A stretch of DNA of 64,000 nucleotides from NCBI GenBank assembly GCA_002422205.1, contig DITS01000009.1:124769-188768 (forward strand). The letters are read 5' to 3'. The position numbers and the translations under genes were made by a program. The DNA is from Alphaproteobacteria bacterium UBA6178 (GTDB taxonomy: Bacteria; Pseudomonadota; Alphaproteobacteria; Rickettsiales; UBA3002). The notes beneath the pieces are model-generated. The model was not told where the DNA came from, did not search any database, and saw only the letters and a list, made by a program, of their open reading frames with translations. This document shows, piece by piece, positions 12,918 through 34,417 of the stretch. Numbering within the stretch: the stretch's first letter is position 1; each line of letters begins with the position of its first letter.

Positions 12918-13100
12918 ATGCATAGTGACATAATGACCATGAAGGAAGTCGCAGACTACCTGAAGATCAATGACAAAACGGCCTATAAGCTCACAGCAGA
13001 AGGTAAAATTCCCGGTTTCAAAGTCGGTGGCGCATGGCGTTTCAAAAAAAGTGAGATTGATAGCTGGATCGCGCAGCAGGGAAAAAGGGAGGCAAAGTGA
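12918..13100 (+). CDS. Excisionase-family helix-turn-helix DNA-binding protein (leader gene of the type I R-M operon)
   Basis: MTMKEVADYLKINDKTAYKLTAEGKIPGFKVGGAWRFKKSEIDSWI matches the MerR/excisionase-type HTH_17 pattern. Its stop overlaps the hsdM start. Confidence 0.7.
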   Translation: MHSDIMTMKEVADYLKINDKTAYKLTAEGKIPGFKVGGAWRFKKSEIDSWIAQQGKREAK

Positions 13101-14671: not shown

Positions 14672-15273
14672 CCTTAGAAAACAAATTAAACATCACCAAT
14701 CAGGTGGAGCTGGCTAAGGCGGAAGAAAAAATCAGCAAGCAAAAGGCCAAACAGCTTTTTGACTCCGGCGACATTGCCAAAGTTGAGGTTGGCACCTTCA
14801 AAGGGCTGGCCTTCATCCACGCCTATTTGTTTGAAGATATTTATGACTTTGCTGGAAAAATCCGTGAGGTGAACATCGCCAAAGGCAATTTCCGCTTTGC
14901 GCCGCTGATGTATTTGCAAGCCTCGCTGGAGCATATCGACGCTATGTCACAAAGCAGCTTTGATCAGATCATCGAGAAATATGTGGAGATGAACATTGCC
15001 CACCCGTTCCGCGAAGGAAACGGACGCGCCACCCGCATCTGGCTGGATTTGATTTTGAAGAAAGAACTGAAACAGGTGGTGGATTGGAACAAGGTGGATA
15101 AAGACGAGTATCTTTCTGCCATGCAGCGCAGCGTGGTGAAAGATGTGGAGATCAAAACCCTGCTGAAAGCAGCGCTGACAGACCAGATTGACGACCGCGC
15201 CCTGTTTATGAAGGGTATTGATGTGAGCTATTACTATGAAGGCTATAGTGAATTCAAAACCGAGGAGCTTTAG
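14668..15273 (+). CDS. fic: Fic-domain protein, class III-like (NmFic-type AMP transferase)
   Basis: Canonical Fic motif [14 protein letters not shown]-terminal S-Y-Y-Y-E-G matches the [S/T]xxxE[G/N] inhibitory-helix motif. 201 aa. ATGA overlap with hsdM. Confidence 0.9.
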
Positions 15274-15275
15274 CT

Positions 15276-16466
15276 ATGAGCCGAATTGACGACTTGATTA
15301 AAGAGCATTGCCCTGATGGGGTGGAGTCTGAACCATTACATAAATTTTTGGATTATTCTCAGCCTACTAAATACATCGTGGAATCTACAAAGTATGACGA
15401 TAACTACTCCACGCCTGTATTAACGGCGGGTGATAGTTTTATTCTCGGTTATACCAATGAAACCGATGGCATATATGAGGCCAGCGAAAATAGCCCTGTA
15501 ATTATATTTGATGATTTCACCACATCATTTCACTGGGTTGATTTTGATTTTAAGGTAAAAAGCTCTGCCATGAAGATGTTGACGCCTAAAGAAGGTGTGA
15601 ACTTTCGATATGTTTATTATGCAATGAAAAATATTCGCTACAAGCCATCAAGCCATGCACGGCAATGGATATCAACATATTCAGAAATTGAAATTCCGAA
15701 CCCACACCCTAGAATACAGCAAGAAATTGTTGACATCCTCGATGCGTTTACCAAGCTGGAGGCGGAGCTGGAGGCGGAGCTGGAGGCGGAGCTGGAAGCA
15801 CGTCGTCAGCAATACTCCCACTACCGCGACGAACTCCTCAATTTTGATGGAAAAGATGTTGCTTGGAAGGCTCTGGATGATGTTGCCATAAAAGTTTCTT
15901 CTGGTGGCACCCCACTATCGACCCGTAAAGATTATTATGGTGGTGATATTCCGTGGCTGCGTACACAAGAAGTTATTTTTGGGGCAATCAACGACACTGA
16001 AATGCGAATCACAGAGAAGGCTGTAAAAGAAACTTCTGCTAAATGGATACCTGCAAACTGCGTTATTATCGCAATCTCTGGGGCTACTGCAGGCCGTTCT
16101 GCGTTTAACACCATTCCACTGACCACTAATCAGCACTGTTGTAATCTGGAAGTAGACGGAAGAAAGGCGCATTGGAAATATGTATTTTATTGGGTGAGAA
16201 ATGAGTATGAACGAATTAAGGCTAAAGGCCGTGGTGCACGCTCTGATCTGAATGCAGGTATTATCAAAGCACACCCCATTCCAATTCCTTTCGCTAATGA
16301 CCCTAAAAAGTCCCTTGAAGAACAAGAGCGCATTGTTGGGATTCTCGATAAATTCGATGCGTTGGTAAACGATATTTCCAGCGGCTTACCTGCCGAGATC
16401 ACTGCCCGCCGCAAGCAATATGAGCATTACCGCAACCAGCTTCTAACATTCCAAGGGGCTGCTTAA
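15276..16466 (+). CDS. hsdS: Type I restriction-modification system, specificity subunit S
   Basis: Two target-recognition domains separated by a central coiled-coil region. Conserved C-terminal helix (RRKQYEHYRNQLLTF). Positioned between hsdM and hsdR. Confidence 0.9.
   Translation: MSRIDDLIKEHCPDGVESEPLHKFLDYSQPTKYIVESTKYDDNYSTPVLTAGDSFILGYTNETDGIYEASENSPVIIFDDFTTSFHWVDFDFKVKSSAMKMLTPKEGVNFRYVYYAMKNIRYKPSSHARQWISTYSEIEIPNPHPRIQQEIVDILDAFTKLEAELEAELEAELEARRQQYSHYRDELLNFDGKDVAWKALDDVAIKVSSGGTPLSTRKDYYGGDIPWLRTQEVIFGAINDTEMRITEKAVKETSAKWIPANCVIIAISGATAGRSAFNTIPLTTNQHCCNLEVDGRKAHWKYVFYWVRNEYERIKAKGRGARSDLNAGIIKAHPIPIPFANDPKKSLEEQERIVGILDKFDALVNDISSGLPAEITARRKQYEHYRNQLLTFQGAA
15756..15800 (+). 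repeat. Tandem 12-bp repeat (ctggaggcggag x3 plus partial) encoding (LEAE)n in the HsdS central spacer
   Basis: Three perfect 12-nt units at 15756-15791, followed by ctggaagca. Confidence 0.9.
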
Positions 16467-17578
16467 TGGCCAAGGGAAAATTCAAATCCATTGAAAGCGT
16501 ATGCGCTCGCATAAAGAAAGATTTGGACACCCCAAATCCAAAAAAACCGGACGATACAAAAGTCTCCATTCTCTATGCATGCAATGCTTCTGGAAAAACC
16601 AGAATCTCTAAGCGATTTGCTGATCAATATGACAAGCAAGTTATTTATTATAATGCATATACTGAAGATTTATTCAGCTGGGACAATGAAAATAATATTC
16701 TAAAAATTAATAACAACAAAGCCTGGATTTTTAGATTTATTCAGGAGCAAGATATTGATGGCGATATAGTCGATAATTTCAAAAAATTTACAGGATCAAA
16801 ATTAGAGCCAACACTCGATATTACCAATAGCCAAATTACTTTTGGAATCCATACTGGCGATAATCAAGGTATTAAAAATATTAAAATATCAAGAGGCGAA
16901 GAAAGTATTTTAATATGGTCTATATTTTTTACAGTATTAGAGACTGGGGTATCTGCCTTAAATGAAACTACCCTTGATAAAAGATTAACCAGAGATTTCG
17001 ATAATATCCATTATATTGTGATTGATGATCCGGTTTCCTCAATGGATGATACACGGATTATCACCGTAGCCCTTGAACTGGCGAGGCTGATCAAAAAATC
17101 GAAGAATCAGCTGAAGTTTTTGATCACCACTCACCATGCGCTATTCTTTAACGTGCTGTTTACTAGCGGAAAGAATGCGGGAAACTGGGACAGAAAAAAC
17201 TATATCCTCTCCAAATCAGGAGCAGAGTTTCTTCTGGAAGGCCAAGGCAGCGAATCACCCTTTGCTTATCATCATGTTGCTATGGCGGACATCGAAAAAG
17301 CAATTAAAGACAAAGACATCAAAAAATATCACTTTAACATTTTCCGTGCGCTCATGGAGAAAACAGCTAATTTCTATGGCTACGACCATTGGAAGAAATG
17401 CTTAGAAGGTGGCAAGCATAGAGAAGAATTCATAAAAATTATCGATCATTACAGCCATAACAAGCTATCAGAGTTGGAATATCGCGACATAACAAACGAT
17501 GATAAGAAAGAATTTGAAACGACATTCCGCTTTTTTATGAAAGAATTTTTCAAGCAGGAAGTAAGAACAAATGGCTAG
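16466..17578 (+). CDS. PrrC/RloA-like ABC-type ATPase (AAA_13-like), putative anticodon nuclease
   Basis: Walker A-like NASGKT, ABC-signature-like ISRGEES, Walker B IVIDDPVSSMD, H-loop ITTHH. The C-terminus has R-x3-E (FRALME) and HYSH about 35 residues later. It occupies the hsdS-hsdR position known for prrC, and its start overlaps the hsdS stop. Confidence 0.6.
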   Translation: MAKGKFKSIESVCARIKKDLDTPNPKKPDDTKVSILYACNASGKTRISKRFADQYDKQVIYYNAYTEDLFSWDNENNILKINNNKAWIFRFIQEQDIDGDIVDNFKKFTGSKLEPTLDITNSQITFGIHTGDNQGIKNIKISRGEESILIWSIFFTVLETGVSALNETTLDKRLTRDFDNIHYIVIDDPVSSMDDTRIITVALELARLIKKSKNQLKFLITTHHALFFNVLFTSGKNAGNWDRKNYILSKSGAEFLLEGQGSESPFAYHHVAMADIEKAIKDKDIKKYHFNIFRALMEKTANFYGYDHWKKCLEGGKHREEFIKIIDHYSHNKLSELEYRDITNDDKKEFETTFRFFMKEFFKQEVRTNG

Positions 17579-20500
17579 CACATCCTTCAACACCATCGCA
17601 GAAAACCCCAACAGCACCGTGGTTGCGGAATATGTGCCGGATAAGAAAGACGCCACGCATTACCAGTCTGAGAATGAGTTGGAGCTGGAGTTTATTCGCT
17701 TGCTGGAAACTAACGGCTATGACTATCTGAACATCACCAAGGAGGCAGATTTACTGCGTAACCTTCGCGTTCAGCTTTCAAAGCTCAATGAGATGGAATT
17801 CTCTGAAAATGAATGGCAACAGATGCTGACGAATTATCTGGCCAATAAAAACGAAGGCATAGAGGAAAAGACCACCAAGGTTCAGGAAGATCATATCTTC
17901 AACCTTAAGCGCGATGATGGCACCACCAAAAATATACGGATTCTGGATAAGGATAACATCCACAACAACAGCGTGCAGGTGATCAACCAATATGAAACAG
18001 AAGGCGCACGCAAGAACCGCTATGATGTGACGGTGCTAGTCAATGGCCTGCCGATGGTGCATGTGGAAATAAAAAGACGCGGCGTGGCTATTCGTGAGGC
18101 GTTCAACCAGATCAATCGTTATCAGCGCGATAGCTTCTGGGCAGACAGCGGCCTGTTTGAGTATGTGCAGCTTTTCGTGATCTCGAATGGCACGCATACC
18201 AAATACTATTCCAATACCACCCGCAGCGCTCATTTGAAGGAACAACAAGGCCGGAAATCACGCAAGAAAACCAGCAATAGCTTTGAATTTACCTGCTGGT
18301 GGACGGATGCGCAGAATAAACGCATTTCTGACCTTGTCGATTTTGGCAAAACCTTTTTTTCAAAGCATTCCATGCTTTCAATTCTGACGCGCTATTGTGT
18401 GTTCACCTCGGACAAACTCTTGCTGGTGATGCGTCCGTATCAAATTGCCGCAGCCGAGCGGATTATGACTCGCATTGCCATGTCTACCAACCATAAGAAG
18501 CTAGGCACTGTAGATGCTGGCGGGTATATCTGGCACACCACTGGCAGCGGCAAAACCCTGACCAGCTTCAAAACCGCGCAGCTCGCCACGCGCCTTGAGG
18601 GTATGGATAAGGTGCTTTTCGTCGTCGATAGAAAAGACCTCGATTACCAAACGATGAAAGAATATGACAAGTTTCAAAAAGGTTCGGCTAACTCTAACAC
18701 TAGCACAGCCATATTAACGAAACAGCTTGCTGACCCGAACGCTAAGATCATCATTACCACTATTCAGAAATTGGCAAAGTTCATCTCTGCTAATAAAGGT
18801 CATAGTATTTTTGATGGGCATATTGTGTTGATATTTGATGAATGTCATCGCTCTCAGTTTGGCGAAATGCACACGGCCATCACCAAAGCATTCAAAAAAT
18901 ATCATATTTTTGGTTTTACCGGTACGCCCATTTTTGCCGCGAACTCTTCTTCTGGTGGCAATCCGCATCTAAAAACTACGGAACAAGCCTTTGGCCAGAA
19001 ACTCCATGCCTACACGATTGTTGATGCCATTAATGATGAAAATGTGTTGCCGTTCCGGATTGATTATATCAACACGCTAAAAATGAAGCATGAAATTAAA
19101 GACAAAAAAGTCCGCGCTATTGATATAGAGGCCGCGGCCAATTCACCTGAGCGCATCAGGCAGATAACGGATTATATTCTGGAGCACTTCGAGCAAAAAA
19201 CAAAGCGCAATGGAGGGTTTTACTCTTTCAGTAAGCTCGCCAACATTGCTGAGATTGTTTCAGATAAAGAGAAGGATGCTACCAAGAAGATCAAAGAAAT
19301 AAGAAACCAAGTGCGCCTTAATGGGTTTAACTCCATTTTTGCGGTTAGCTCCATTGAGGTGGCAAAGAAATACTATGCGGAATTTAAGTCACGAGATTCA
19401 GGGCTGAAAATTGCCACCATCTTTAGCTTTGGAGCAAACGAAGAGGAAAATGAAGACGGTATTTTACCAGATGAAGACTTCGATACTGGCGGCTTAGATA
19501 AGCTGTCTCGCGACTTCTTGGATATGGCCATTGATGATTACAACCAGCATTTCAGCACAAGCTATGACACCAGCGCGGATAAGTTTGAGAACTACTACAA
19601 AGATCTTTCACAACGCATGAAAAACCGGGAGATTGACTTGCTGATCGTCGTAAATATGTTCCTGACTGGTTTTGATGCAACTACTCTTAACACATTATGG
19701 GTTGATAAAAACTTGCGTCACCACGGGTTACTTCAGGCTTTTTCACGCACCAATCGCATTCTAAATTCGGTTAAAACATTCGGGAACATCATCTGCTTCC
19801 GCGATCTGGAACAAGCCACAAATGATGCGCTTTCTATTTTTGGAAACAAAGAGGCGGGTGGCATCGTTCTGCTGAAATCATTTAAAGAATATTATAATGG
19901 CTGGGAAAAAGAGGGTAAGCGGCAAAGAGGGTATGTTGACTTAATAGCCGAGCTTCAAGAGCGCTTTCCTCTACCGGTCTTTATTGAAGGCGAGCAGGCA
20001 GAAAAAGATTTCATTAAGCTGTGGGGTTCTATCCTGAGGCTTCGCAATATCCTTACTTCGTTTGATGAGTTTGCTGGGAATGAAATTCTGTCTGAGCGAG
20101 ATTTCCAAGATTACCAGAGCGCTTATCTCGACCTTTACGACAAGCTCAGAAAGCATAAAGATGCTGACAAAGAGAATATCAATGATGATATTGAATTTGA
20201 AATAGAGCTGGTGAAGCAAGTCACAATTAACATTGATTACATCCTTCAACTTGTCGCCAAATATCATAAATCTAAGATGAGGGATAAAGAGGTACTAACT
20301 GCTATTGATAAAGCGATTGATTCAAGTATTGAGCTGAGAAGCAAAAAAGAGTTAATCGAGCGCTTCATCAACACCCTAAATGTTCATAGCGATGTAGATA
20401 AAGATTGGCGTACATTTACAGATAAAAGCAGATCTGAGGAACTTGAGAGGATTATTGAAGAGGAAAAACTAAAACCAGAAGAAACGCGAAAATTTATTGC

Positions 20501-20660
20501 TAATGCTTTCCGTGAGGGAGAATTGAAATCCACAGGAACCAGCTTTGCTAGCATTATGCCCCCAGTATCTATGTTTGATGAGAACAATACGCTTGCAAAA
20601 AAGAAATCGCTCGTGCTCGAAAGACTGCGTGCATTCTTTGAAAAATATATAGGAGTATAG
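17571..20660 (+). CDS. hsdR: Type I restriction enzyme, endonuclease/translocase subunit R
   Basis: N-terminal nuclease region (RYDVTVLVNGLPMVHVEIKR), SF2 helicase motifs (HTTGSGKT, IFDECHRSQ, FTGTP), C-terminal helical domain. 1029 aa. Confidence 0.93.
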   Translation: MASTSFNTIAENPNSTVVAEYVPDKKDATHYQSENELELEFIRLLETNGYDYLNITKEADLLRNLRVQLSKLNEMEFSENEWQQMLTNYLANKNEGIEEKTTKVQEDHIFNLKRDDGTTKNIRILDKDNIHNNSVQVINQYETEGARKNRYDVTVLVNGLPMVHVEIKRRGVAIREAFNQINRYQRDSFWADSGLFEYVQLFVISNGTHTKYYSNTTRSAHLKEQQGRKSRKKTSNSFEFTCWWTDAQNKRISDLVDFGKTFFSKHSMLSILTRYCVFTSDKLLLVMRPYQIAAAERIMTRIAMSTNHKKLGTVDAGGYIWHTTGSGKTLTSFKTAQLATRLEGMDKVLFVVDRKDLDYQTMKEYDKFQKGSANSNTSTAILTKQLADPNAKIIITTIQKLAKFISANKGHSIFDGHIVLIFDECHRSQFGEMHTAITKAFKKYHIFGFTGTPIFAANSSSGGNPHLKTTEQAFGQKLHAYTIVDAINDENVLPFRIDYINTLKMKHEIKDKKVRAIDIEAAANSPERIRQITDYILEHFEQKTKRNGGFYSFSKLANIAEIVSDKEKDATKKIKEIRNQVRLNGFNSIFAVSSIEVAKKYYAEFKSRDSGLKIATIFSFGANEEENEDGILPDEDFDTGGLDKLSRDFLDMAIDDYNQHFSTSYDTSADKFENYYKDLSQRMKNREIDLLIVVNMFLTGFDATTLNTLWVDKNLRHHGLLQAFSRTNRILNSVKTFGNIICFRDLEQATNDALSIFGNKEAGGIVLLKSFKEYYNGWEKEGKRQRGYVDLIAELQERFPLPVFIEGEQAEKDFIKLWGSILRLRNILTSFDEFAGNEILSERDFQDYQSAYLDLYDKLRKHKDADKENINDDIEFEIELVKQVTINIDYILQLVAKYHKSKMRDKEVLTAIDKAIDSSIELRSKKELIERFINTLNVHSDVDKDWRTFTDKSRSEELERIIEEEKLKPEETRKFIANAFREGELKSTGTSFASIMPPVSMFDENNTLAKKKSLVLERLRAFFEKYIGV

Positions 20661-22195: not shown

Positions 22196-23581
22196 ATGAG
22201 CGCAAACAAACTTTACAGTGATGCGGATTGGCAGAGAGTATTCCTTGCTCCAGAATCTCTTAATGAGCCATACAGGACGCCAGCTAGAAAAGATTATGCA
22301 CGCATTATACATTCGCCATGCTTTAGGCGTTTGCAGGGTAAGACTCAATTGTATCAAGGCTATGAGTCTGATTTTTTTCGCAATCGACTTACTCATTCAT
22401 TGGAAGTTGCACAAATCTCTAAAGGGATAGCAATCAAGCTTAATTACGAGCATAAAGAGCTATCGTCCAACCCAATAGATCTTGATGTAGCAGAAGCGGC
22501 AGGGCTTATCCATGATTTGGGGCATCCCCCTTTTGGACATAATGGTGAGGATGCTTTAGATGAATGTATGATGAAGCTGGGGGGATTTGAAGGAAATGCC
22601 CAAACTTTGCGAATGCTTGCTCGGTTAGAGAAAAAAGAACTGAATTGCCCTAAAATAGTGAACGGCGTTGATCAAAGGTCGGGTCTCAATCTATGCTATC
22701 GTACGCTCGCTTCCGCGCTTAAATACGATAAAAAGATTCCTTTGATAAGGAATAAAAGATCAAAACCTACAAAAGGATATTACATCTCTGAAGAAGAGAT
22801 CGTATCAAAAATTAAGAGTCATGTTGCACCTTCTTTGTCGGATGATCAGGGTTTTAAAACCCTTGAATGTCAAATTATGGATTTGGCAGATGATATTGCG
22901 TACTCAACATATGACTTAGAAGATTCTTTTAAGGCAGGTTTTTTGTCGCCGTTGGGACTGTACTCTAGTGCAAGTAATAACCTTTTACTCGATAGAGTGG
23001 TGAGCACTATCAAAAGGCGCACAAAGCTAAAAATAAATAACTCGGATGTATTGAAGGTATTAGATCGGGTATTTAGCTTTTTAGGAAATATCGATTCTGT
23101 AGAGCCCATGTTTGATGCAAGCGTTATATACACAGCATCTACGCGTATTAAAGAATGTGGTTACTATCGTTCTGCGTTTACTTCTGAAAGAATTAAGCAG
23201 GCTTTAGATGGAGTGGAATTTATTTATAATCCTCAGCACCCTTGTTTGAGTGAAGTGAAATTCAATAATGAGATGTTGCTAGAAATAGAGGTGCTAAAAA
23301 ATCTTACATTTGTTTCGATGATTATGTCTCCCCGACTAAAAATTGTTGAGCATCGTGGAAAGCAAATTGTTAGGGAAATTTTTGAGGCACTTTATGATCA
23401 AGCTGATGGATATTTATTTATGCCGGATGACTTTCAACAGCTTTATCGTGATATGGAGCGCGAAGAGGACAGGGCTAGGGTCATTTGTGATTTTATAGCA
23501 GGAATGACCGATCGCTATGCATTGGAATTTTATGGCAGGCTAAAATCAGCAAGCCCAGAGAGCATCTTTAAGCCTATTTGA
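22196..23581 (+). CDS. dgt: dGTPase-family dNTP triphosphohydrolase (HD domain)
   Basis: RKDYARIIHSPCFRRLQGKTQL, FRNRLTHSLEVAQI, HDLGHPPFGH and a C-terminal DFIAGMTDRYALEFY are hallmarks of the Dgt family. The gene is visibly AT-rich compared with the core genes. Confidence 0.85.
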   Translation: MSANKLYSDADWQRVFLAPESLNEPYRTPARKDYARIIHSPCFRRLQGKTQLYQGYESDFFRNRLTHSLEVAQISKGIAIKLNYEHKELSSNPIDLDVAEAAGLIHDLGHPPFGHNGEDALDECMMKLGGFEGNAQTLRMLARLEKKELNCPKIVNGVDQRSGLNLCYRTLASALKYDKKIPLIRNKRSKPTKGYYISEEEIVSKIKSHVAPSLSDDQGFKTLECQIMDLADDIAYSTYDLEDSFKAGFLSPLGLYSSASNNLLLDRVVSTIKRRTKLKINNSDVLKVLDRVFSFLGNIDSVEPMFDASVIYTASTRIKECGYYRSAFTSERIKQALDGVEFIYNPQHPCLSEVKFNNEMLLEIEVLKNLTFVSMIMSPRLKIVEHRGKQIVREIFEALYDQADGYLFMPDDFQQLYRDMEREEDRARVICDFIAGMTDRYALEFYGRLKSASPESIFKPI

Positions 23582-24268: not shown

Positions 24269-25309
24269 ATGTCTGAATCGATTAGCCTAAAACAGGATTA
24301 TGATGCGCTAGAACGCCGTGGGATGCTTAAAAGGGACATCCCCGCGTATATTGCTGACAACATTGCTAGCGCTATTACTCTCCGTCCTTATCAAGATAGA
24401 GTATTGCAGCGCTTCTTCTTTTACATGGAAGAAGAACAGCGTCAGCGTCCCTCCCATTTGCTATTCCACATGGCCACTGGTAGCGGAAAAACAGTGCTTA
24501 TGGCCAGTCTGATTCTTCATCTTTATGCTCAAGGCTACCGAAATTTTCTGTTTTTCGTCAATTCCAGCAATATCATTGATAAAACTAAAGAGAACTTTCT
24601 GAACCCAGTTTCAAGCAAGTATCTCTTTGCACCAGATGTAACGATTAATGATAAGCGAGTGAACATTCGCGAAGTTGCCAATTTTGATGAAGCGGTGGAT
24701 ACAGACATCAATATCCATTTTTCTACCATTCAGGGGCTGCATACCCGCCTTCAGAATCCCAAGGAAAACGCAGTTACGCTGGAAGACTTTGAAAACCGTA
24801 AGATTGTGCTGATTTCAGATGAAGCTCATCACATCAACACGCTAACCAAGAAGTCTTTGGGTAAAGAAGAGCAAGCAGAGGTCAATAGCTGGGAATCTAC
24901 AGTCAGCAAGATATTCCAGTCTGACATGAATAATCTTTTGTTGGAATTTACGGCCACCATTGAATTAGAACATTCGGCAATCAAAGCCAAATATCATGAC
25001 AAGATTCTCTATGATTATTCGTTGCGTCAGTTTCGAGAAGATGGATATTCCAAAGATGTGGAAGTGCGGCAAGCAGACCTTCCCCCGTTAGAGCGCATGT
25101 TCCAAGCTGTGATTCTGAGTCAGTATCGCCGTAAGGTTGCAGAAGCCCACGGATTGCATATTAAACCAGTGATTTTGATGAAGTCTAAGACCATAGCAGA
25201 ATCCAAAGCAAATGAAGAAGCCTTTCATAACTACATTGCCGGATTGAAGGAAGTAATCAGTGATTTCATTGCTGGCATGACTGACCGTTACCCGCATCAG
25301 GAAGTGTAG
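24269..25309 (+). pseudogene. res: Type III restriction enzyme Res subunit, N-terminal about one third only, fused to a dGTPase-gene scar
   Basis: Has helicase motif I MATGSGKT and motif II LISDEAHHIN, but no later helicase motifs or nuclease domain. The last residues, VISDFIAGMTDRY, copy the dGTPase C-terminal motif. Confidence 0.75.
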
Positions 25310-26135
25310 AGAACGTGCCAGTCGCAATCAACCAAAGGAGCTTATCTGCAGCATAGGGAGTAACGTCTGTATTGTTTTTTGCGAGGCGTATAATAGCGAG
25401 AAATGCGGTATAGTTATTTATGCTTTCCCCTGCTTCAAATAATCCTAATCTGTAACATATTTTGATTATATGCGTATCGGGTTTAGGGAAGCCATCATAT
25501 CCAATTTCTTTTAAGAAATCGCACGCCAAGGGAAAACCAAATCCGTCGATTTTCAAAGATAAAAGCATTGGTAATGCAATACGTGCTTCTTCATGCTTAT
25601 ACAACTCACTCGCCCACGAATTGAAATCTTAAATATTCTTAAATTTTGTAACGAATTTGGCAGCAGAGATAATGGTTTTACAATATCTTGACCATATCCC
25701 CTCTTTTCTGCCCGTTTCTATGATATTGATTGGTGCCTTAATATCCAGCAGCTTTAATTTTGTATTAATTGTCTGAAGAACAGCTGACGATGAGGTGTAC
25801 TGCTTTAATACTTTATACGGATCGAAATTTTCTAATATATGCTCGCCGATCTTTTCTAAACGTGTCTGTTGTGTTCCACCAATGACATTAGGCCGTCTCT
25901 CAGCATTTTGTGCTGAAACGAGTATTTGCTTATATAGCTCATGAAGGCATTTTGGGATTGGTCTGCTTACTCCGGGTTTTAGATGCAGTCTGATGATGTT
26001 TATTGCTGCGTCTGGCGTATCTGCGCACTGTTTCCGTGGTGGCAGTGTATTTTGTAGCTGTGCGGCAAGCCAGTCATGGGCGAGCTTGTACACTAATTGA
26101 TCGCGTTTGATAATGTAGTCTGGTTCTATTGACAT
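25266..26135 (-). pseudogene. HhH-GPD-like (DNA glycosylase-like) gene interrupted by one in-frame TAA
   Basis: ORFs 25629..26135 and 25266..25604 are in the same frame, separated only by the stop at 25629-25631. The distal part, IDGFGFPLACDFLKEIGYDGFPKPDTHIIKI, fits the helix-hairpin-helix pattern of EndoIII/AlkA-type enzymes. Confidence 0.5.
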
Positions 26136-26161: not shown

Positions 26162-27154
26162 TCAGCTGTTACGTAAGCTGCTATGGCATAGCTCACGCAT
26201 GGTTTGCAGTAGGCTATCCGGTTCTAAAATGGTGACGCTGTCGCCCCAGGTGAATAAGTGCCAGCATAATTCGCTGAGGCCACCTGCGGTGAAGCGGACG
26301 ATGATATCGCCATTATTTTGTTGCTCGATTTGTTGCGTGGGGTGGAAGTGAAAGTTCAGTACATCGCTTGCCGCTTCGGCATTAAAACGAAGCACCACGG
26401 ATTGCGGCTCTTCCTGATACACTCCGAAAGAACGTGCGGCATAATCCTGTAAGGAGAAAGCGGCATCGCGTTGATAGGCGTTGCCGGTTTTTTTGGCGGA
26501 GCGAATATTGGAAAGTAACCACAGACGCCAATCCTGCATGGCAGGGCTGTAGGCCACCAGGTAGGCTTTGCGACCATAGAGGAAGCCATAGGGGTGGATG
26601 GTTTGTTTGCTGTCTTTGCCGCTGCTGCGTGCGGTGTATTCGATGCATATCTCCTGCATGCCGAGGATGGCGTGCCGTAGCGCTGCCAGTATGTCGTTAT
26701 TTAGTCGTCGTCGGGGGCCGGGCTGCAATGCCAGTCCTTCGGCTAGCGTGAGTGCCTCTAGGTCGGGTTCCATGCGGCGCAGCAGGTCGGGGCGCATCGC
26801 TCCGAGTAGCGACAGCCGCAATTGTTCGAGCTTGCCTGCCTGTTCTTGTAGCCCTTCTTTGGATAGCAGGGCGCTGGCGGTTTGCAGGGCGATCAATTGG
26901 TCGCTCGAGCAATCCAGCAAGCGTGACAGCGTGCCGGTTGGCAGACGCCAGCGTTTGGTGCGCTCCTCATCCGGCACTTCCTCCATCTGCGGAAAGACGC
27001 GCCACAGCGCATCGCGCAGCCGCTCGGCGGTGCGGCGTGAGATGCTGAGCGCTTCCTGTATATCGGCCAGTGACAGGCCTGAGCGGGTGGCCTGCATTCT
27101 CAGAGCGAGGGTGAGTAACATCTCCGCTTTCTCATGACGTGGGCCGGTGGTCAC
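26162..27154 (-). CDS. HTH-WYL-domain transcriptional regulator (BrxR/CapW-like architecture)
   Basis: N-terminal HTH (LSLADIQEALSISRRTAERLRDAL). Central WYL-like segment (IHPYGFLYGRKAYLVAYSP...WRLWLLSNI). C-terminal extension. GTG start 3 nt after the upstream stop. Confidence 0.8.
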   Translation of the reverse strand: MTTGPRHEKAEMLLTLALRMQATRSGLSLADIQEALSISRRTAERLRDALWRVFPQMEEVPDEERTKRWRLPTGTLSRLLDCSSDQLIALQTASALLSKEGLQEQAGKLEQLRLSLLGAMRPDLLRRMEPDLEALTLAEGLALQPGPRRRLNNDILAALRHAILGMQEICIEYTARSSGKDSKQTIHPYGFLYGRKAYLVAYSPAMQDWRLWLLSNIRSAKKTGNAYQRDAAFSLQDYAARSFGVYQEEPQSVVLRFNAEAASDVLNFHFHPTQQIEQQNNGDIIVRFTAGGLSELCWHLFTWGDSVTILEPDSLLQTMRELCHSSLRNS

Positions 27155-27157
27155 GAT

Positions 27158-27853
27158 TTAATATCCATGTTCACTCAGCACCTCATCCACTGCTTCGGCA
27201 CAGCTGGTGAATAGCGGTATGATGGCATTTATCAATGAGGCATGCTTATCTTTTTTATATGACTCATAGAAGTAGAGCAATGCCTCGTCACTTGTAAAGG
27301 ACGATGGCAAGCCATCAAAGCCCTCTGCGCGAAGCAGCGTGTCCAAGTAAGTGTAGGTTGGCCACCAGTTACTTTGTTCTGCCATAGGAATCGGGCTTTG
27401 GAGTTTTGAAAATATTAGACTCCGTATATCCTTGTCTGCAAGATATGCAACGTCATCTTCTGGATGCCAGTAATTTTCATTTTTTGTCGCTTTCTTATCC
27501 TTTGGTGCGCGGAACCCGAATTCAATCCTAGCTTCATGACATAAGGCAATGCCAGATAATTTGGGCCATGTTTTTCGGCGTAGGCGGATAGAAGAATGGA
27601 TCTGCAGGGGCGAGTCCTTCCATTGTGTCTTGTTGCACCAGTCGCTAACTACCCAGTATCTAAGCTCTTCTTTGCTTCCGCGGTTCATATCTCTGCATTT
27701 TGACTCCAGTTGCTCTGTCAATGCGCAGAGAAACTCCCCCAGATATTTGCTCTTAATAGCGTTGCCCTGCGTGATAATAGCCAGTGCAATTTTGTAATTA
27801 TCGGTGTTTTTAAATGCATTGTTGACAACCAATTCTTGTAAGACTTTGGTCAT
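27158..27853 (-). CDS. Hypothetical protein (third gene of the AAA+/nuclease operon)
   Basis: The MTKVLQEL Met overlaps the upstream stop (ATGA). 231 aa, Trp-rich, no domain recognised. AT-richer than its neighbours. Confidence 0.55.
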   Translation of the reverse strand: MTKVLQELVVNNAFKNTDNYKIALAIITQGNAIKSKYLGEFLCALTEQLESKCRDMNRGSKEELRYWVVSDWCNKTQWKDSPLQIHSSIRLRRKTWPKLSGIALCHEARIEFGFRAPKDKKATKNENYWHPEDDVAYLADKDIRSLIFSKLQSPIPMAEQSNWWPTYTYLDTLLRAEGFDGLPSSFTSDEALLYFYESYKKDKHASLINAIIPLFTSCAEAVDEVLSEHGY

Positions 27854-28533
27854 TCGATTTCCTCCTCTGGTAATTGCCATTGCAGCACAGGAAAATTCTG
27901 CGCGACATATTCTTCAAAATCACAGAGGAAGCAGCGCAGTTTTTCGGCGCGGGTTTCCTGTATGCAGCGTGTGAGCCAGCCTTTCAGACTGGGACTGCCC
28001 TCGGTGCTGTGATAAGGTAGTGTGATCCCAATCTCCGCCCATGTTTCGGTATCAATGCTGGTGGGTGTAAGGGTCTGGCCTGTCAGGAAGACCAGCTTGT
28101 ATCGCTCTGTAGCGCCGCATTGTTCCCTTAAATGATTGGAATAATCTTCGAGTTGGTTTGTTTGCTCCAATGCCCATGGTTTATTCTCGATTGCCAGCCG
28201 GAATCGATTCCGGCTTGTGAGCAATAAATCTATGCGCTGCCTACCGTTGGCTTGTACTTCGCATGTCACTTTGACTTTCTCATCGACCGGGAAAGTGTCA
28301 AAGCCGATGGTCTCAATAAAAAGCCGGAGGAGCAGATCACCCTGCCCATGTGGGCCGAGTGGGTCGAGCAGATCACGCAGGATGGTGGAGAGTGCCATTT
28401 CGTTGCGGGCTAGATACAGCGAAAACAGATTTAACCGCCTTGCGGTGGCGCGGTCAATATCGCGTTGGGCGCGTTCAACATAGGGTAGCATACCGCTTAG
28501 CTCGGCAAAGAATTGTTCCACATTTTGTTTCAT
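27850..28533 (-). CDS. PD-(D/E)XK superfamily nuclease-like protein
   Basis: N-terminal NLFSLY...E...S..LRDLLDP.GPHGQG motif. Core GRQRIDLLL ... RLAIENKPWA gives the D...E-x-K arrangement. Confidence 0.7.
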   Translation of the reverse strand: MKQNVEQFFAELSGMLPYVERAQRDIDRATARRLNLFSLYLARNEMALSTILRDLLDPLGPHGQGDLLLRLFIETIGFDTFPVDEKVKVTCEVQANGRQRIDLLLTSRNRFRLAIENKPWALEQTNQLEDYSNHLREQCGATERYKLVFLTGQTLTPTSIDTETWAEIGITLPYHSTEGSPSLKGWLTRCIQETRAEKLRCFLCDFEEYVAQNFPVLQWQLPEEEIE

Positions 28534-28545
28534 TTTTTACTCTCT

Positions 28546-30567
28546 TTACGATGCCATACGGAATCCGAGTGGTTGTTTAATGCCGTGCCGATCACGCTGC
28601 TCCTTTAGTAGCATGGATAAGAGCTCTGTTACATCCTTTTGTAAACCTAAAATGATCGCTTTGCGTTTGACGACGGCAAAATCGGCAGGTGTCAGGCATG
28701 TTAGCTGCGCGATGGCTGCCGGTGGCTTTTTGCCAAAATAATGTCGAAAGCACGCGGCAGCCTGCTCTGCTGTGAGATAGTGAAACCCGATTTTGAATGT
28801 GAAGCGACGCAGGGATGCGGTATCCAGATGCTGCATCAGATTGGTGGTGCAGGCAAAAGGCAGCGGGTGCGATTCCATCCATGTCAGCATTTCATTTACC
28901 TGTGTGACTTCCCATGAGCGCTGCGCATTCTGGCGATCCTGCAATAGGCTGTCGGCTTCATCAAACACAAGAAAAGCGTTTTCTTCTATTGCTTCACGGA
29001 ATGCGGCGGCAATGCGTTTCTCAGTATCTCCGACCCATTTAGACAGCAGGTCTGACGCACGTAATTGTTTCAGCTCCAGCCCCATTTGCTGTGCAAGGTA
29101 GCGTGTGTAGGCCGTTTTACCCGTGCCGGGAGGGCCATAAAGACACAGAGAGAAATGTTGTCCCGCATCGGGACGAATGAGCTGGGTTGTGAGATGATCG
29201 AGGTTGGTATCGGCATGGGCAAATGCAGGGTTGAATGCCACCGAATCATGGGTGGGGAGTTTGCTTTTTCCTTCCATTAGCTTATGGGCATTGGCCAGGG
29301 CAAAACGCACCTGCTCGATGCCGCCATCGGCCAGTTGGGCGGCTTTGATCGCGTGTTCGGCAATGGCGGGCGCTTCATTGAAATCGCGTGCGAGCCGGTC
29401 GATGTCCTGGGTTGAGAGCGAAAGCTTCTGCGTCTGCGCCAGACGTTGCCAGATGCGCCGACGATTCTGCTCAGGCGGTGCTTTCATTTCAATGGCAATG
29501 GTCATACGGCGCAATAATGCCGGATCGAAATGCCCGATAGCGTTGGTCGTCCAAAATGTCGGGAGTGGGTTATTTTCCAGCATGCGATTCAGGAATACTT
29601 TGGAGCCACCCATTACCATGCGGCCATAACCGGCATCGAGTAAATCCTCCATTTCGTCAAACAGCAAGAGCGCGGGTTTGGCATTGAGGAGCAGTTTGTT
29701 AGCCAGTCGCAGGGCGCGCATGCGCTCGATGCGCGTTGCCTCGTCTCCGGCCTCATCGGTTTCGGCGATGCTGTATAGGGGGGTGCGTAACCGCGCAGCA
29801 AGGGCTTTGCACAATTCGGTCTTGCCCGTGCCGGGCGGGCCGTAAAGCAGAATGTTAATGCCTTTGGCTTGGGTGCGCAGCGCGCCACTGAGCATTCGTT
29901 CGAGAAAATCACGCGCTTCGCTCAGATGTTCAAAATCGGACCATGATAAGCTGCTGCGCTGTGCTTCACCGAGCAGTCCGGCATAGGAGGATTTGCCTTT
30001 GCCGGGCTGTGAGGCAAGCCAGCTATAAATACGTGAGGATAGCTGGATGATGTCGTCAAGGTCGGATGCGCCTATTAAGCGGTCTTCATGCAGGATGCCT
30101 GTGTTTTTCAAAACGGCACTTTGTTGCAGGCTCATCATGATATCGGTGCGCTTGCATCGCAGCATCAATGCCAATGCATCCGTGGTGTTGCAACGGTGGA
30201 AGGCCATCAGAAAACCACCCATCACCGGATTGAAGCGGAGCGCCGCACCCATCGTCAGAATGGCGGCTTCGGTTTCGTTTAGTTTGAGCAGGCTGGTCAG
30301 TCTGTTCACATTGGTTTGCACCGGTGGTAATGATTGTCGTGCTGTATGCTGCAGCATAGGCGCGAGCAATTGGATAATCCGGCTGCGCTGTTCGTCGCTA
30401 TCGGTCTGTGCATTGAGATCTGCACGATTGGGTTCGGGGAGTATACTGTCGCCATCACTTTGCAGCCAGTCGATAAGGCAGCGTGCAATGCGGCTTTGTT
30501 TGGGGGCGGCGCGCAGAATATGGGTGCTGTAGCGGGCAATCAGCGTCGGGGTGGTCAGATCAATCAT
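28546..30567 (-). CDS. Tandem classical-clade AAA+ ATPase with about 235-aa N-terminal domain of unknown function
   Basis: Two modules. Each has Walker A GPPGTGKT, a Walker B (LLLFDEMED; FLVFDEADS) and SRH-like Arg pairs (DPALLRRM; DTASLRRF). A strong SD (AAGGAGAG) precedes the ATG. Confidence 0.85.
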   Translation of the reverse strand: MIDLTTPTLIARYSTHILRAAPKQSRIARCLIDWLQSDGDSILPEPNRADLNAQTDSDEQRSRIIQLLAPMLQHTARQSLPPVQTNVNRLTSLLKLNETEAAILTMGAALRFNPVMGGFLMAFHRCNTTDALALMLRCKRTDIMMSLQQSAVLKNTGILHEDRLIGASDLDDIIQLSSRIYSWLASQPGKGKSSYAGLLGEAQRSSLSWSDFEHLSEARDFLERMLSGALRTQAKGINILLYGPPGTGKTELCKALAARLRTPLYSIAETDEAGDEATRIERMRALRLANKLLLNAKPALLLFDEMEDLLDAGYGRMVMGGSKVFLNRMLENNPLPTFWTTNAIGHFDPALLRRMTIAIEMKAPPEQNRRRIWQRLAQTQKLSLSTQDIDRLARDFNEAPAIAEHAIKAAQLADGGIEQVRFALANAHKLMEGKSKLPTHDSVAFNPAFAHADTNLDHLTTQLIRPDAGQHFSLCLYGPPGTGKTAYTRYLAQQMGLELKQLRASDLLSKWVGDTEKRIAAAFREAIEENAFLVFDEADSLLQDRQNAQRSWEVTQVNEMLTWMESHPLPFACTTNLMQHLDTASLRRFTFKIGFHYLTAEQAAACFRHYFGKKPPAAIAQLTCLTPADFAVVKRKAIILGLQKDVTELLSMLLKEQRDRHGIKQPLGFRMAS

Positions 30568-30627
30568 GCTCTCTCCTTTGGGTGATGAAGTGAGTATAGG
30601 CTATGCGTGCGTCAGAATCGGACGTAT

Positions 30628-30849
30628 TCATCGCAATCTATTAAGCTGATCCCATTGTCCCGCTTCATCGATTTCTTCAGCGGTATGGAGCACAGCTATT
30701 CGGGAAGCCTCGAATTGAATCGATCTGCCCGATTTGGGCTTGGGGTTAGGGTTGGACTCGGCGGGAAAATGCTCACCGGCCCAGTTGGTCCACTGTGCTA
30801 ACGCGTTCTCAAAGCCCTTGGGGGGCTCTGTCTGTTTGCCATGACTCAT
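30628..30849 (-). CDS. Small protein carrying the conserved MSHGKQTEPPKGFENALAQWTNWAGEHFP N-terminal module
   Basis: Start at the MSHGK Met within ORF 30628..30882. The first 29 codons and the upstream DNA are identical to those of the 507-aa gene starting at 34362. Confidence 0.45.
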   Translation of the reverse strand: MSHGKQTEPPKGFENALAQWTNWAGEHFPAESNPNPKPKSGRSIQFEASRIAVLHTAEEIDEAGQWDQLNRLR

Positions 30850-31127
30850 TTGCACCACGCTTGCGCAATGAACCACTCTCACCGAACTGACGTTTTTCGT
30901 TTTTTTGCTTGCGTGTTTCGGATGGGTTACAGGTTTTGGGGGAGGGGTATGAGAGGCGGGAAGGGTGCGCTGAGCGCGGATTTGGGAGCTGGAAGCATAG
31001 CGCTAAAATAGTTAAGAATTAGTTAGCTTCCAAATATCTTCACAAAAGCTTCATACTTCTCAATAGAATAGTTTGTTAGAAATTTCTCACCTTCGCACAC
31101 AAAAACATGGGAGAGTGTTATGGGAGA
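30762..31127. repeat. Divergent promoter / 5' cassette, copy 1 (complete)
   Basis: The left part matches 34275-34417 (minus-gene N-terminus and leader). The right part (30901-31127) matches 31842-32068 (leader, GGGAGAG SD and the ATGGGAGA start of plus genes). Contains TTCACA-N19-TAGAAT (31039-31069). Confidence 0.8.
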
Positions 31128-32841: not shown

Positions 32842-34362
32842 CTAGGCTCTTCCAATATTGGTATCGGCCGAAGCTATTTTTTGTGGAATATTAGGGCTTT
32901 TGTTTTCGTCTACGTTTGCTTCCTCACCACCCGTTACTGCTACCTTATCATTGGATTGAGTAGACGCTGATGTTGAAAGCTTTGCAATAGATATATCCAT
33001 TAAGGGTACAATGATATCCTGTGTCTTTGGGCTTTCATTAACTGTTAAAACTGAAAGCTCTTTCGCTTTAGCACTTTCCTTAGTATCGCTAATTGCATTG
33101 CTATAAGAATTCATTATCCGCGTTTGTTTTTCAGCTGAATCTACGTCTGCTGCAGGCTTTTCTTCCAAAGATTTTATGGCTGCTTCAGCTCTGGGATTTA
33201 ATGATTGAGCTTTTCGTTCATTGTTTGCCTGACTTTTGTCATTTTCTTGCTTTTGCCTTTTAAGCTGCTCCTGCTTTTGCACTAAACCTTCTTCTTTTTT
33301 GGCGGATTCTTTTTTGGCTTCTTCAACCTTCTTTTCTGCCTCCGCCTTTTCTTCGGGGGTTGAGTTGGGGTCATTGCGTACTTTCTCGCGATTGCGTTCA
33401 GCATCGATGATTTTCAGCTGAGCGGCAGCGATTTCGGCTTTGCCTTCTTCTTCGGTTTTTTTCTTTGCTTCTTCTATTTGCTTTTGTTCGGCTTGTAGCT
33501 GTTGCTGTTTCTCTTCGACTTCCTTTTTTGCCAGCGCCTGCGTTTCGGCCAGTACTCGGCGGGCTTCGGCAAGGCGGCGTTCGGCATCTTCGATGTCACG
33601 CTCAGAGGCACCGCGCTTGCGTAATTCCTCGACGGTGGCTTCGGCGGCGTCGACATCGTTTTGCGCCATGTCGGTGCGGATGAGGGCGCGGTCGACGCGG
33701 TCTTCGGTTTGATTGAGCTTTTCTTCCAGTGCCGCACGCTCGTTGCGGAAGGGTGAAAGGTCGATGCCGTATTTGCCAGCCAGTTGATCGATGGCGGCGT
33801 TATTCGCTGCGGCGCGTTGCTCCAGCGCAGCCCATTGCGCGTCATAGGCTTCCATTTTCGCCTGAAATATTTCCGTGGCGGTGGCACCGAGCTGGAAACC
33901 GGCTTCCTGTTTGACTGCAGTAGCGTTGGCCATGCTCATCTCAATCACGCTTTTGGCACTGGCTACTGCCATTTTGATCTCACTCGGGGTGCGGGCTTGT
34001 GCTGCCAGATCGCGCACACTGCGCAATGCGCTGAGCGAGCCCTCCAGCCCCGTGGCGGCATTATTGGCGGCGTCGGCGGATTCCTCGCGTAGCGCTTCAT
34101 CAATGATTTCGGCCATTAAGCGTTCGAGCTCATTTATCTGGGCATCCAAAGTGGTGAGGGTTTCGTCACGCATGGCTTGCATCAAGGCTTCGCTGGTGCG
34201 GTCTTCACCCAATATTTCGGTAATGCTTGCGAGTCGTGCTTCTGAGTCAGAGGATAGAGCAGGCGCAGGTTCAACGGGAAAATGCTCACCGGCCCAGTTG
34301 GTCCACTGTGCTAACGCGTTCTCAAAGCCCTTGGGGGGCTCTGTCTGTTTGCCATGACTCAT
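32842..34362 (-). CDS. Large coiled-coil, E/K/A-rich protein with the conserved MSHGKQTEPP... N-terminal module
   Basis: Start at MSHGK within ORF 32842..34380. Long heptad-like E/K/Q-rich central region. S/N/T-rich C-terminal tail. Confidence 0.7.
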   Translation of the reverse strand: MSHGKQTEPPKGFENALAQWTNWAGEHFPVEPAPALSSDSEARLASITEILGEDRTSEALMQAMRDETLTTLDAQINELERLMAEIIDEALREESADAANNAATGLEGSLSALRSVRDLAAQARTPSEIKMAVASAKSVIEMSMANATAVKQEAGFQLGATATEIFQAKMEAYDAQWAALEQRAAANNAAIDQLAGKYGIDLSPFRNERAALEEKLNQTEDRVDRALIRTDMAQNDVDAAEATVEELRKRGASERDIEDAERRLAEARRVLAETQALAKKEVEEKQQQLQAEQKQIEEAKKKTEEEGKAEIAAAQLKIIDAERNREKVRNDPNSTPEEKAEAEKKVEEAKKESAKKEEGLVQKQEQLKRQKQENDKSQANNERKAQSLNPRAEAAIKSLEEKPAADVDSAEKQTRIMNSYSNAISDTKESAKAKELSVLTVNESPKTQDIIVPLMDISIAKLSTSASTQSNDKVAVTGGEEANVDENKSPNIPQKIASADTNIGRA

Positions 34363-34417
34363 TTGCACCTCCCTGTGCAATGAACCACTCTCACCGAACT
34401 GACGTTTTTCGTTTTTT
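34275..34417. repeat. Divergent promoter cassette, copy 3 (minus-side half)
   Basis: Identical to 30762-30857 and then near-identical for about 50 more nt. Confidence 0.8.

Follow-up and report, generated by a model that had tools for sequence, protein, structure and literature searches.

What controls a compact operon that sits in a bacterial defence island, encodes a Cdc48-like double-ring ATPase beside a nuclease, and ends in a gene for a WYL-domain transcription regulator, and what might such an operon be for? The question is raised by a stretch of 64,000 nucleotides (nt) from Alphaproteobacteria bacterium UBA6178 (Rickettsiales; assembly GCA_002422205.1, contig DITS01000009.1, positions 124,769 to 188,768), hereafter the window, in which four genes on the minus strand occupy positions 26162-30567. 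A preliminary description of the window took them for an undescribed defence operon whose last gene encodes a WYL regulator of the BrxR/CapW type. The analysis reported herein points to a different kind of regulator, an activator of the DriD family, and to a smaller unit of conservation, the pair of ATPase and WYL regulator. The reading that we favour, with a probability of roughly 0.55, is that of a self-contained operon, inducible by single-stranded DNA (ssDNA) and self-amplifying, which is built around this pair and serves defence or conflict.

Gene 1 (28546-30567) encodes a type II (tandem) AAA+ ATPase of 673 amino acids (aa), and gene 2 (27850-28533) a protein of 227 aa with a PD-(D/E)XK nuclease domain (PDDEXK_4). 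Gene 3 (27158-27853) encodes 231 aa when read from the ATG that overlaps the stop codon of gene 2 (the longest open reading frame, or ORF, has 240 aa), and gene 4 (26162-27154), which starts with GTG, a DriD-family WYL regulator of 330 aa. The genes are separated by a 12-nt gap (genes 1 and 2), an ATGA overlap (genes 2 and 3) and a 3-nt gap (genes 3 and 4). A strong ribosome-binding site, GAGGAGG, precedes the ATG of gene 3, which appears to be translationally coupled to gene 2, and the N-terminus of gene 4, as read from its GTG, aligns residue for residue with that of DriD. The co-directional, tightly packed arrangement is thus as first described. All motifs quoted at that time (GPPGTGKT twice, LLLFDEMED, FLVFDEADS, ALLRRM, SLRRF, RIDLLL...AIENK and LLDPLGPHGQG) are present in the translations, Pfam agrees with the domain calls for genes 1, 2 and 4 (AAA twice, PDDEXK_4, and WYL plus WCX), and the view of a single operon inside a defence island is supported. 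A protein identical to gene 1 occurs on three metagenome contigs, of which at least two carry genes 2 and 3 as well; a search of plasmid DNA gave no match.

The identity of the regulator bears most directly on how the operon is controlled. Gene 4 contains a WYL domain (1.6e-11) and a WCX domain (8.6e-15) in Pfam, and a phmmer search against the PDB aligned its residues 1-319 with the DriD chains 9pfq_Q and 8tp8_A at an E value of 1.6e-70. It is 41% identical over its full length to DriD of Caulobacter crescentus (CCNA_01151), and has the same architecture, a winged helix-turn-helix followed by a three-helix bundle, WYL and WCX. Structures of BrxR and CapW have also been deposited in the PDB. 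A search of the whole PDB with gene 4 (E <=0.01) returned only DriD chains and, weakly, PafBC, and no BrxR/CapW entry. In a published phylogeny, too, the BrxR/CapW clade is separate from DriD and DdaA (PMC12392091). DriD is an ssDNA-activated transcription activator of a DNA-damage response that is independent of SOS (PMC9186387, PMC10853764, PMC13004042), as is the WYL protein DdaA of Acinetobacter, and gene 4 shares with DriD both the architecture and the residues that read DNA. All eight of the DNA-contact residues listed for DriD (R36, R37, T38, E40, R41, R43, T61 and K62; PMC10853764) are retained in gene 4, the recognition helix of which reads SRRTAERLRDALW, as compared to GRRTAERMRDAVW in DriD. 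Also retained are the four residues that contact the C-terminal domain of the RNA polymerase alpha subunit (alpha-CTD), R121, R122, P125 and E128, which form the motif R-R-x-x-P-x-x-E in the three-helix bundle and the joint mutation of which in DriD abolishes alpha-CTD binding (PMC13004042). Among the eleven ssDNA contacts of DriD (Y168, S172, R176, R178, R189, Y192, R204, W206, R207, Y240 and R288), seven are kept.

The canonical driD gene, the neighbour of a TonB receptor operon or of didA, specifies a regulator with global reach, whereas gene 4 is transcribed together with the ATPase and nuclease genes of its defence-island operon. Because the canonical driD loci of Caulobacter segnis and Phenylobacterium have no ATPase neighbour, gene 4 is probably a DriD-family paralogue dedicated to this operon. 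BrxR and CapW resemble gene 4 in being WYL-WCX factors that are encoded with defence genes, and they regulate BREX, CBASS and other defence systems; they differ from it in that they repress, whereas the promoter here has the geometry of activation, and in the position of the gene, gene 4 being the last of its operon.

That geometry is seen upstream of gene 1. A DriD-type operator, ATACGTCCGATTCTGACGCA (minus strand, 30608-30627), is located 57 nt upstream of the ATG of gene 1, and read from 30627 to 30608 it matches the experimentally defined operator of didA, ATACGTCCGTTTCTGGCGCA (PMC10853764), at 18 of 20 bases. Its core palindrome, CGTC-N7-GACG (30610-30624), is followed after 11 nt by TATACT (30593-30598), a -10 element that is accompanied by no -35 consensus. 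The same interval of 11 nt separates the box from CAATCT in the didA binding probe and recurs in a C. segnis promoter of the CCNA_03891 type, the equivalent of the promoter used for cryo-electron microscopy. It is found again in L093, a related locus in which the box CGTCCTATTCTGACG is followed after 11 nt by TACCAT. In DriD-activated promoters the site covers the -35 position and a -35 consensus is absent, and a consensus scan detected no sigma-70 promoter with a -35 element upstream of gene 1. By analogy with these promoters, the arrangement appears to be that of activation. The assignment of gene 4 to the BrxR/CapW type therefore gives way to that of a full-length DriD homologue whose operon promoter has a DriD operator in the -35 position. 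When the window was searched for CGAC-N7-GTCG, one mismatch being tolerated, matches were at chance level only and none fell at the promoter; the operator emerged when either A or T was accepted at the third position.

To what extent this regulation is a property of the family can be judged from related loci. A scan of one genome per species provided 80 loci, and pair counts were made on 83 non-redundant loci, in which WYL genes near the ATPase gene were found with an iterated WYL profile and operator boxes with the pattern CG[AT]C-N7-G[AT]CG. Boxes are 5.4-fold denser around and upstream of the starts of ATPase genes than elsewhere in the loci. They occur upstream of the ATPase gene in 26 of the 44 WYL-linked loci, as compared to 5 of 39 other loci. 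Moreover, TAnnnT is found at exactly +11 after 20 of the 35 boxes that lie upstream of ATPase genes, with no other offset accounting for more than two. This enrichment, together with the fixed +11 spacing across loci, suggests that the ATPase gene is the conserved regulated target of the DriD-like protein.

Four loci (L016, L033, L046 and L052) carry no WYL gene within 8 kb, yet a box of the DriD type stands where it would be expected, upstream of the ATPase gene; one such box, from a Caulobacteraceae metagenome-assembled genome (MAG), reads CGACCGTATTTGACG. Boxes at these WYL-less ATPase genes suggest control in trans by a chromosomal DriD.

The preliminary description had asked for the conservation of the four-gene neighbourhood to be scored. 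What recurs is the pair: of the 83 loci, 44 have a gene 4-like WYL gene in the vicinity of the ATPase gene, directly downstream and co-directional in 21 of them and upstream, in the same or the divergent orientation, in the others. The similarity scores of ATPase and WYL protein co-vary (rho 0.57, p 1e-4). The four-gene set, in contrast, is not the unit of conservation, as the cargo, mostly nucleases, varies and no third gene is universal among the ATPase loci. In L001 the ATPase gene is followed by genes for a 250-aa unknown protein and a WYL-WCX protein. DUF8426 lies between ATPase and WYL in L002, which is flanked by integrase, DUF2779 and AbiEii genes, and in L003 nothing separates the ATPase gene from the WYL-WCX gene downstream; L003 and L004 adjoin genes for a serine recombinase and a DNA methyltransferase. 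PDDEXK_4 partners occur in L011, L013 and L093 besides the window, and DUF2779 with a Cas4-like N-terminus is the partner in nine loci. REase-ARP/PDDEXK_13 is found in L007 and HNH_2 in L006. In four Rhodobacterales loci (L028, L029, L034 and L045), ATPase and WYL genes are followed by a gene for a 522-aa fusion of a DSP-phosphatase ("Swiss Army Knife") and an ADP-ribosylglycohydrolase, which is cut by the contig end in L028; an integrase gene lies upstream in L034. The ATPase-WYL pair is also present in six IMG/VR provirus predictions (L094-L099), of which five have the operator box and one shares its contig with L026 (Gemmobacter).

A diverged counterpart of the operon is L093, in which genes for an ATPase (680 aa), a Sel1-repeat protein (233 aa), a PDDEXK_4 protein (243 aa), a gene 3 homologue (229 aa) and a WYL-WCX protein (330 aa) follow one another. 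The ATPase is 45% identical to gene 1, the PDDEXK_4 protein 41% to gene 2 and the gene 3 homologue 33% to gene 3, and the gene 3 homologue overlaps the preceding PDDEXK_4 gene, as it does in the window. This gene set indicates that ATPase, nuclease and WYL regulator form a recurring operon. The middle genes of L001 and L093 are unrelated to each other. Across the loci as a whole, the conserved core is the ATPase and WYL pair with its promoter, and the nuclease one of several interchangeable cargos.

Two side observations concern the composition of these loci. Sel1-repeat proteins are encoded in the two closest diverged relatives, in the interval between ATPase and PDDEXK_4 in L093 (3242-3943) and two genes after the WYL gene in L001 (12403-13080); such proteins could be adaptors of the ATPase. 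In L024, from a Boseongicola MAG, a TnpB/Cas12f-like gene (2373-3947) lies between ATPase and WYL, presumably as an insertion sequence that has split the pair.

The conserved partner of the regulator, gene 1, has two PF00004 AAA stretches in Pfam (3.6e-43), and consists of an N-domain (residues 1-232), D1 (about 233-440) and D2 (about 455-660). The Walker A/B and Arg-finger residues of both modules are invariant across an alignment of 30 homologues, so that the two complete classical AAA modules first described are borne out. D2 has a canonical pore loop, SKWVGDTEK (family consensus SMWVGxTEK), in the region of which all 30 homologues have G513 and at least 90% of them V512; in D1, the Walker A/B motifs and the Arg finger are intact and an aromatic pore loop is missing. 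The best structural matches of an AlphaFold model of gene 1 (predicted local distance difference test score, pLDDT, 82.9) are NVL, Rix7, Cdc48 and p97, at about 1e-17 and with both modules aligned, and its sequence matches in the PDB are VAT, Cdc48 and p97, via D2. The N-domain of 232 residues, which is specific to the family, is all-helical when modelled separately with AlphaFold (pLDDT 84.9); a profile search of PDB sequences returned nothing significant for it, and Foldseek found no match for the model in the PDB (best E 0.6), in keeping with its earlier description as unrecognised. Gene 1 has more than 4000 homologues, many of them full length (660-720 aa) and 40-50% identical, in several phyla. 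The protein encoded by gene 1 is most likely a hexameric unfoldase or remodeller of proteins that is driven by D2 and selects its substrate through the N-domain.

Like Cdc48/p97/VAT and Rix7/NVL, gene 1 has two stacked modules of the classical AAA clade, and its D2 pore loop contains K-W-V-G. Where Cdc48/p97 have an N-terminal double-psi-barrel/beta-clam, however, gene 1 has an unrelated all-helical N-domain, and of the aromatic pore loops of Cdc48/p97 it has only the one in D2. Sequence identity to the Cdc48/Rix7 group is only about 20%, and the bacterial, island-borne, WYL-controlled setting is unlike that of the group. A parallel in context is provided by the CDC48-like tandem ATPases attached to type III-A CoCoNuT systems, which are of the p97 type, lie in a predicted defence context and are found beside a protein with the PD-(D/E)XK fold (PMC11090510). 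These ATPases keep Walker motifs only in the C-terminal module, whereas both modules of gene 1 are intact, and they have C-terminal leucine-rich-repeat and beta-barrel domains, whereas the extra domain of gene 1 is N-terminal. Nor are any McrBC-like genes present here.

The nuclease was correctly recognised: gene 2 matches PDDEXK_4 (PF14281) in Pfam at 5.6e-21, with the motif RIDLLL...AIENK present, and the PADLOC profile of PDC-S26 (PDLC04983) at 2.7e-28 over positions 19-191 of 413. Gene 3 had been described as lacking a recognisable domain, and indeed has no Pfam match, but it is not an independent unknown. The same profile matches it at positions 224-377 (1.5e-5), and BLASTP gave weak collinear matches to the C-terminal halves of a 413-aa PDDEXK_4 protein (in L013) and a 419-aa protein (P0126). 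An exhaustive HMMER search of 1.84 billion representative proteins found only three relatives besides the query, a stand-alone protein of 229 aa, a fused protein of 441 aa (P0252) and a protein of 144 aa; the N-terminal half of P0252 is gene 2-like (2e-18) and its residues 236-416 are gene 3-like. On the strength of the shared profile, the collinear weak matches and the fused 441-aa relative, genes 2 and 3 are the two halves of a PDC-S26-type protein. A word-indexed search with genes 2 and 3 fused returned nine proteins. In L086, where PDDEXK_4 is also split, the following 219-aa gene is not detectably similar to gene 3, a rare and fast-evolving sequence.

PDC-S26 as known is a single protein of about 400 aa and a stand-alone candidate of PADLOC; here it is split over two coupled genes, with one profile covering its N-terminal nuclease half in gene 2 and its C-terminal half in gene 3, and the two genes are flanked by those of an AAA+ ATPase and a WYL regulator. 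In the literature searched, PDC-S26 was mentioned solely in a pipolin preprint. As the split is kept in L093 at 33-41% identity, it is not a fresh frameshift but appears old and maintained.

Is the operon, then, a known system? PADLOC, Pfam and NCBIfam scans of the four proteins returned no multi-gene system. That no named system matches, as was claimed at the outset, accordingly holds at the level of the multi-gene set; it does not hold for the family of genes 2 and 3, PDC-S26 being a PADLOC candidate already. Profiles of the Iet system (IetA ATPase and IetS protease) and of the TRIP13/HORMA branch of CBASS match gene 1, but in one module only, D2. In PADLOC these are partial IetA/TRIP13 matches, and the NCBIfam model IteA scores 108 bits against a cut-off of 510. 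The Iet system was rejected, with IteA below its cut-off and no protease domain found by Pfam and PADLOC in genes 2-4 or in the flanking genes scanned. For CBASS TRIP13/HORMA, neither a HORMA nor a cyclase domain was found in genes 2-4 with the same two libraries. Searches of the profile libraries (PADLOC, Pfam and NCBIfam) and of full-text literature found no description of a module that joins an AAA+ ATPase to a DriD-like regulator. What is already known is the regulator family (DriD) and PDC-S26 as a listed candidate; novelty seems to lie in the combination, in the use of activator logic by a module carried on an island, and in a conserved Cdc48-like effector with a new N-domain.

A working scheme can be drawn from these elements. 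Gene 4 would bind the 20-bp operator that takes the place of the -35 element in the only recognisable promoter of the operon, and ssDNA, lodged in the WYL/WCX pocket of gene 4, would lead to recruitment of RNA polymerase, as with Caulobacter DriD. The ssDNA might come from DNA damage, or from replication and recombination intermediates of phages and plasmids. Three outputs would follow. The gene 1 hexamer would thread a substrate, selected by the N-domain, through the D2 pore loops; genes 2 and 3 would act as a two-subunit PD-(D/E)XK nuclease; and more gene 4 would be made. Since gene 4 is co-transcribed with its target, its autoregulation would be positive, and ssDNA produced by the nuclease could reinforce the loop. 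The enzyme beside or between the pair is exchangeable, its place being taken in different loci by PDDEXK_4, PDDEXK_13/REase-ARP, HNH, DUF2779/Cas4-like, DUF8426 or the phosphatase-ADP-ribosylglycohydrolase fusion. Most probably the operon serves to defend against phages or mobile elements, perhaps through abortive infection. Such a role is favoured by the defence island here, by the integrases, Abi genes and proviruses elsewhere, and by the swapping of effectors. A broader proposal, which we put forward tentatively and with less confidence than the reading of this operon itself, is that the pair forms the core of a widespread, undescribed class of immune or conflict systems that extends over several phyla and into proviruses, in which an activator senses ssDNA of the invader or of damage, a self-amplifying burst of the Cdc48-like unfoldase is the conserved effector, and other enzymes are accessory.

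The surroundings of the operon in the window were described as a remnant island with restriction-modification (R-M) debris. The island is there, on the plus strand upstream, and Pfam and PADLOC recognise in it a type I R-M system, PrrC, PDC-S04, Mrr, a dGTPase (1e-117) and a truncated type III Res. "Debris" does not apply to the type I R-M locus (HsdM, HsdS and HsdR; 13097-20660, plus strand), which appears intact. It has embedded in it a PDC-S04 protein (14668-15273, plus strand; 1.8e-106) between hsdM and hsdS and a PrrC-like anticodon nuclease (16466-17578, plus strand; PADLOC PrrC, 4e-100) between hsdS and hsdR, the latter in the same placement as in the prr locus of E. coli. The Res ORF (24269-25309, plus strand) matches its profile over positions 21-331 of 873, and its last residues are ...SDFIAGMTDRY, with a 10-residue motif that is common to the C-terminal region, ...CDFIAGMTDRYALEF, of the neighbouring dGTPase (22196-23581, plus strand). 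The shared end suggests that a Res gene was joined, by deletion or recombination, to the 3' end of another copy of the dGTPase gene.

On the promoter side, an 84-aa ORF (30628-30882, minus strand) abuts the operator, its stop codon lying 3 nt before the core box. It repeats the N-terminus, MSHGKQTEPPKGFENALAQWTNWAGEHFP, of a coiled-coil, Glu/Lys-rich protein of 512 aa (32842-34380, minus strand) encoded about 2 kb away, and is a duplicate of the 5' segment of that gene, marking where the module ends on its upstream side. On the other side, gene 4 is followed after 26 nt by a co-directional 168-aa ORF (25629-26135, minus strand; 40% GC) and then by a low-GC ORF of 112 aa (25266-25604, minus strand) with a weak match to Ogg-HhH glycosylase (6e-4). 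A sequence scan found no terminator-like site between gene 4 and the 168-aa ORF, and both low-GC ORFs may be reached by read-through from the operon. The 168-aa ORF had no match in Pfam and PADLOC and no homologue in the related loci, and does not resemble the gene that takes the corresponding place in L001; whether it belongs to the operon is uncertain.

Several observations weigh against the reading as a dedicated, ssDNA-inducible defence operon. Gene 4 departs from DriD at four ssDNA contacts (R176D, R178K, R207L and R288S), and two small residues of the RNA polymerase interface, G18 and A20, are A and R; in view of these changes the signal and the activation step could differ from those of DriD, whose canonical loci, as noted above, lack the ATPase altogether. 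A site overlapping the -35 position could just as well act in repression. In about 29 of the 83 loci no WYL gene lies within 8 kb, and the neighbourhood genes are crude longest-ORF calls in high-GC DNA. Among 150 neighbouring ORFs searched with PADLOC and Pfam there are integrases, GmrSD, HEC-05, AbiE, Abi_2, a DRT and PDC families, mixed with housekeeping genes. Some subclades of the ATPase lie in conserved chromosomal synteny (Comamonadaceae) or beside genes of RNA repair. In Sphingomonas, an ATPase homologue without a WYL neighbour is directly downstream of RtcA (RNA 3'-phosphate cyclase), and in a Clostridium MAG the RtcB ligase gene is immediately upstream of the WYL gene (RtcA/RtcB loci: L056 6059-7165, L061 6617-7696 and L036 12010-13131). 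Such neighbours would link part of the ATPase family to RNA repair. Given the WYL-less loci, the synteny and the RtcA/RtcB neighbours, a general role in stress or repair fits as well as defence.

The main rival is built on this ground. The operon would be a module for DNA damage or nucleic-acid stress, not immunity, in which damaged DNA is cleared by the ATPase of proteins trapped on or cross-linked to it, the nuclease works on the lesion or on the DNA ends, and the island is incidental. All characterised close relatives of the regulator (DriD, DdaA and PafBC) run DNA-damage responses, DriD itself controls the nuclease gene bapE and repair genes, and the DriD-like boxes at WYL-less ATPase genes (L016, L033 and L046) suggest a global DriD regulon, to which the Comamonadaceae synteny and the RtcA/RtcB neighbours may be added. 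We nevertheless consider a damage role rather unlikely. The close relatives L001 and L002 and the Rhodobacterales clade adjoin integrases, AbiE and other defence genes, L003 and L004 lie by a serine recombinase and a DNA methyltransferase, and some loci fall in predicted proviruses. From one locus to another the partner enzymes are exchanged, as happens in conflict systems, the criterion of PADLOC has PDDEXK_4/PDC-S26 enriched in defence islands, and the regulator is dedicated to the operon and co-transcribed with it rather than global. Less likely again is the model implied by the preliminary description, in which a BrxR/CapW-like WYL repressor silences a toxic ATPase-nuclease defence system until infection. 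Of the WYL regulators encoded next to defence systems, those tested, BrxR and CapW, are repressors, and CapW is reported to sense ssDNA as well (PMC11662680). A protein bound over the -35 position could block RNA polymerase, and G18 and A20, which DriD needs to contact the polymerase, are not conserved. Four features speak for an activator: the PDB search that returned DriD and, weakly, PafBC only; the three-helix bundle with its alpha-CTD contact motif; the operator and 11-nt spacing of DriD-activated promoters, which characteristically have no -35 element; and the WYL gene being the last of the operon in 21 loci, instead of a separate upstream gene. It is very unlikely, finally, that the operon is inactive debris in which genes 2 and 3 arose by a frameshift in a single PDC-S26-type gene. 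Truncated neighbours, namely the Res fragment (24269-25309) and the duplicated 5' fragment (30628-30882) that abuts the operator, would fit such decay, as would the single-chain relatives of genes 2 and 3 (P0126, 419 aa, and P0252, 441 aa). On the other hand, no catalytic motif of genes 1 and 2 is broken, genes 1 and 4 have the full length of their homologues, the two-gene overlap is kept in the diverged L093, gene 3 has its strong ribosome-binding site, and promoter and operator are intact.

If the favoured reading of a self-amplifying, ssDNA-inducible operon is right, its meaning goes beyond the window. The activators DriD, DdaA and PafBC have so far been studied as chromosomal regulators of DNA damage. 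The present locus and several dozen sampled relatives suggest that this activator type has been recruited as the dedicated, co-transcribed switch of a mobile ATPase-nuclease module. To our knowledge, no established defence system uses a Cdc48-like double-ring ATPase as a conserved effector in this way, and the module points to a bacterial ATPase of this kind, with a new substrate-recognition domain, in that role. With operator, regulator residues and ATPase motifs all defined exactly, direct tests of the hypothesis are possible. If true, DNA-damage sensing and immunity would be joined through a positive-feedback circuit.

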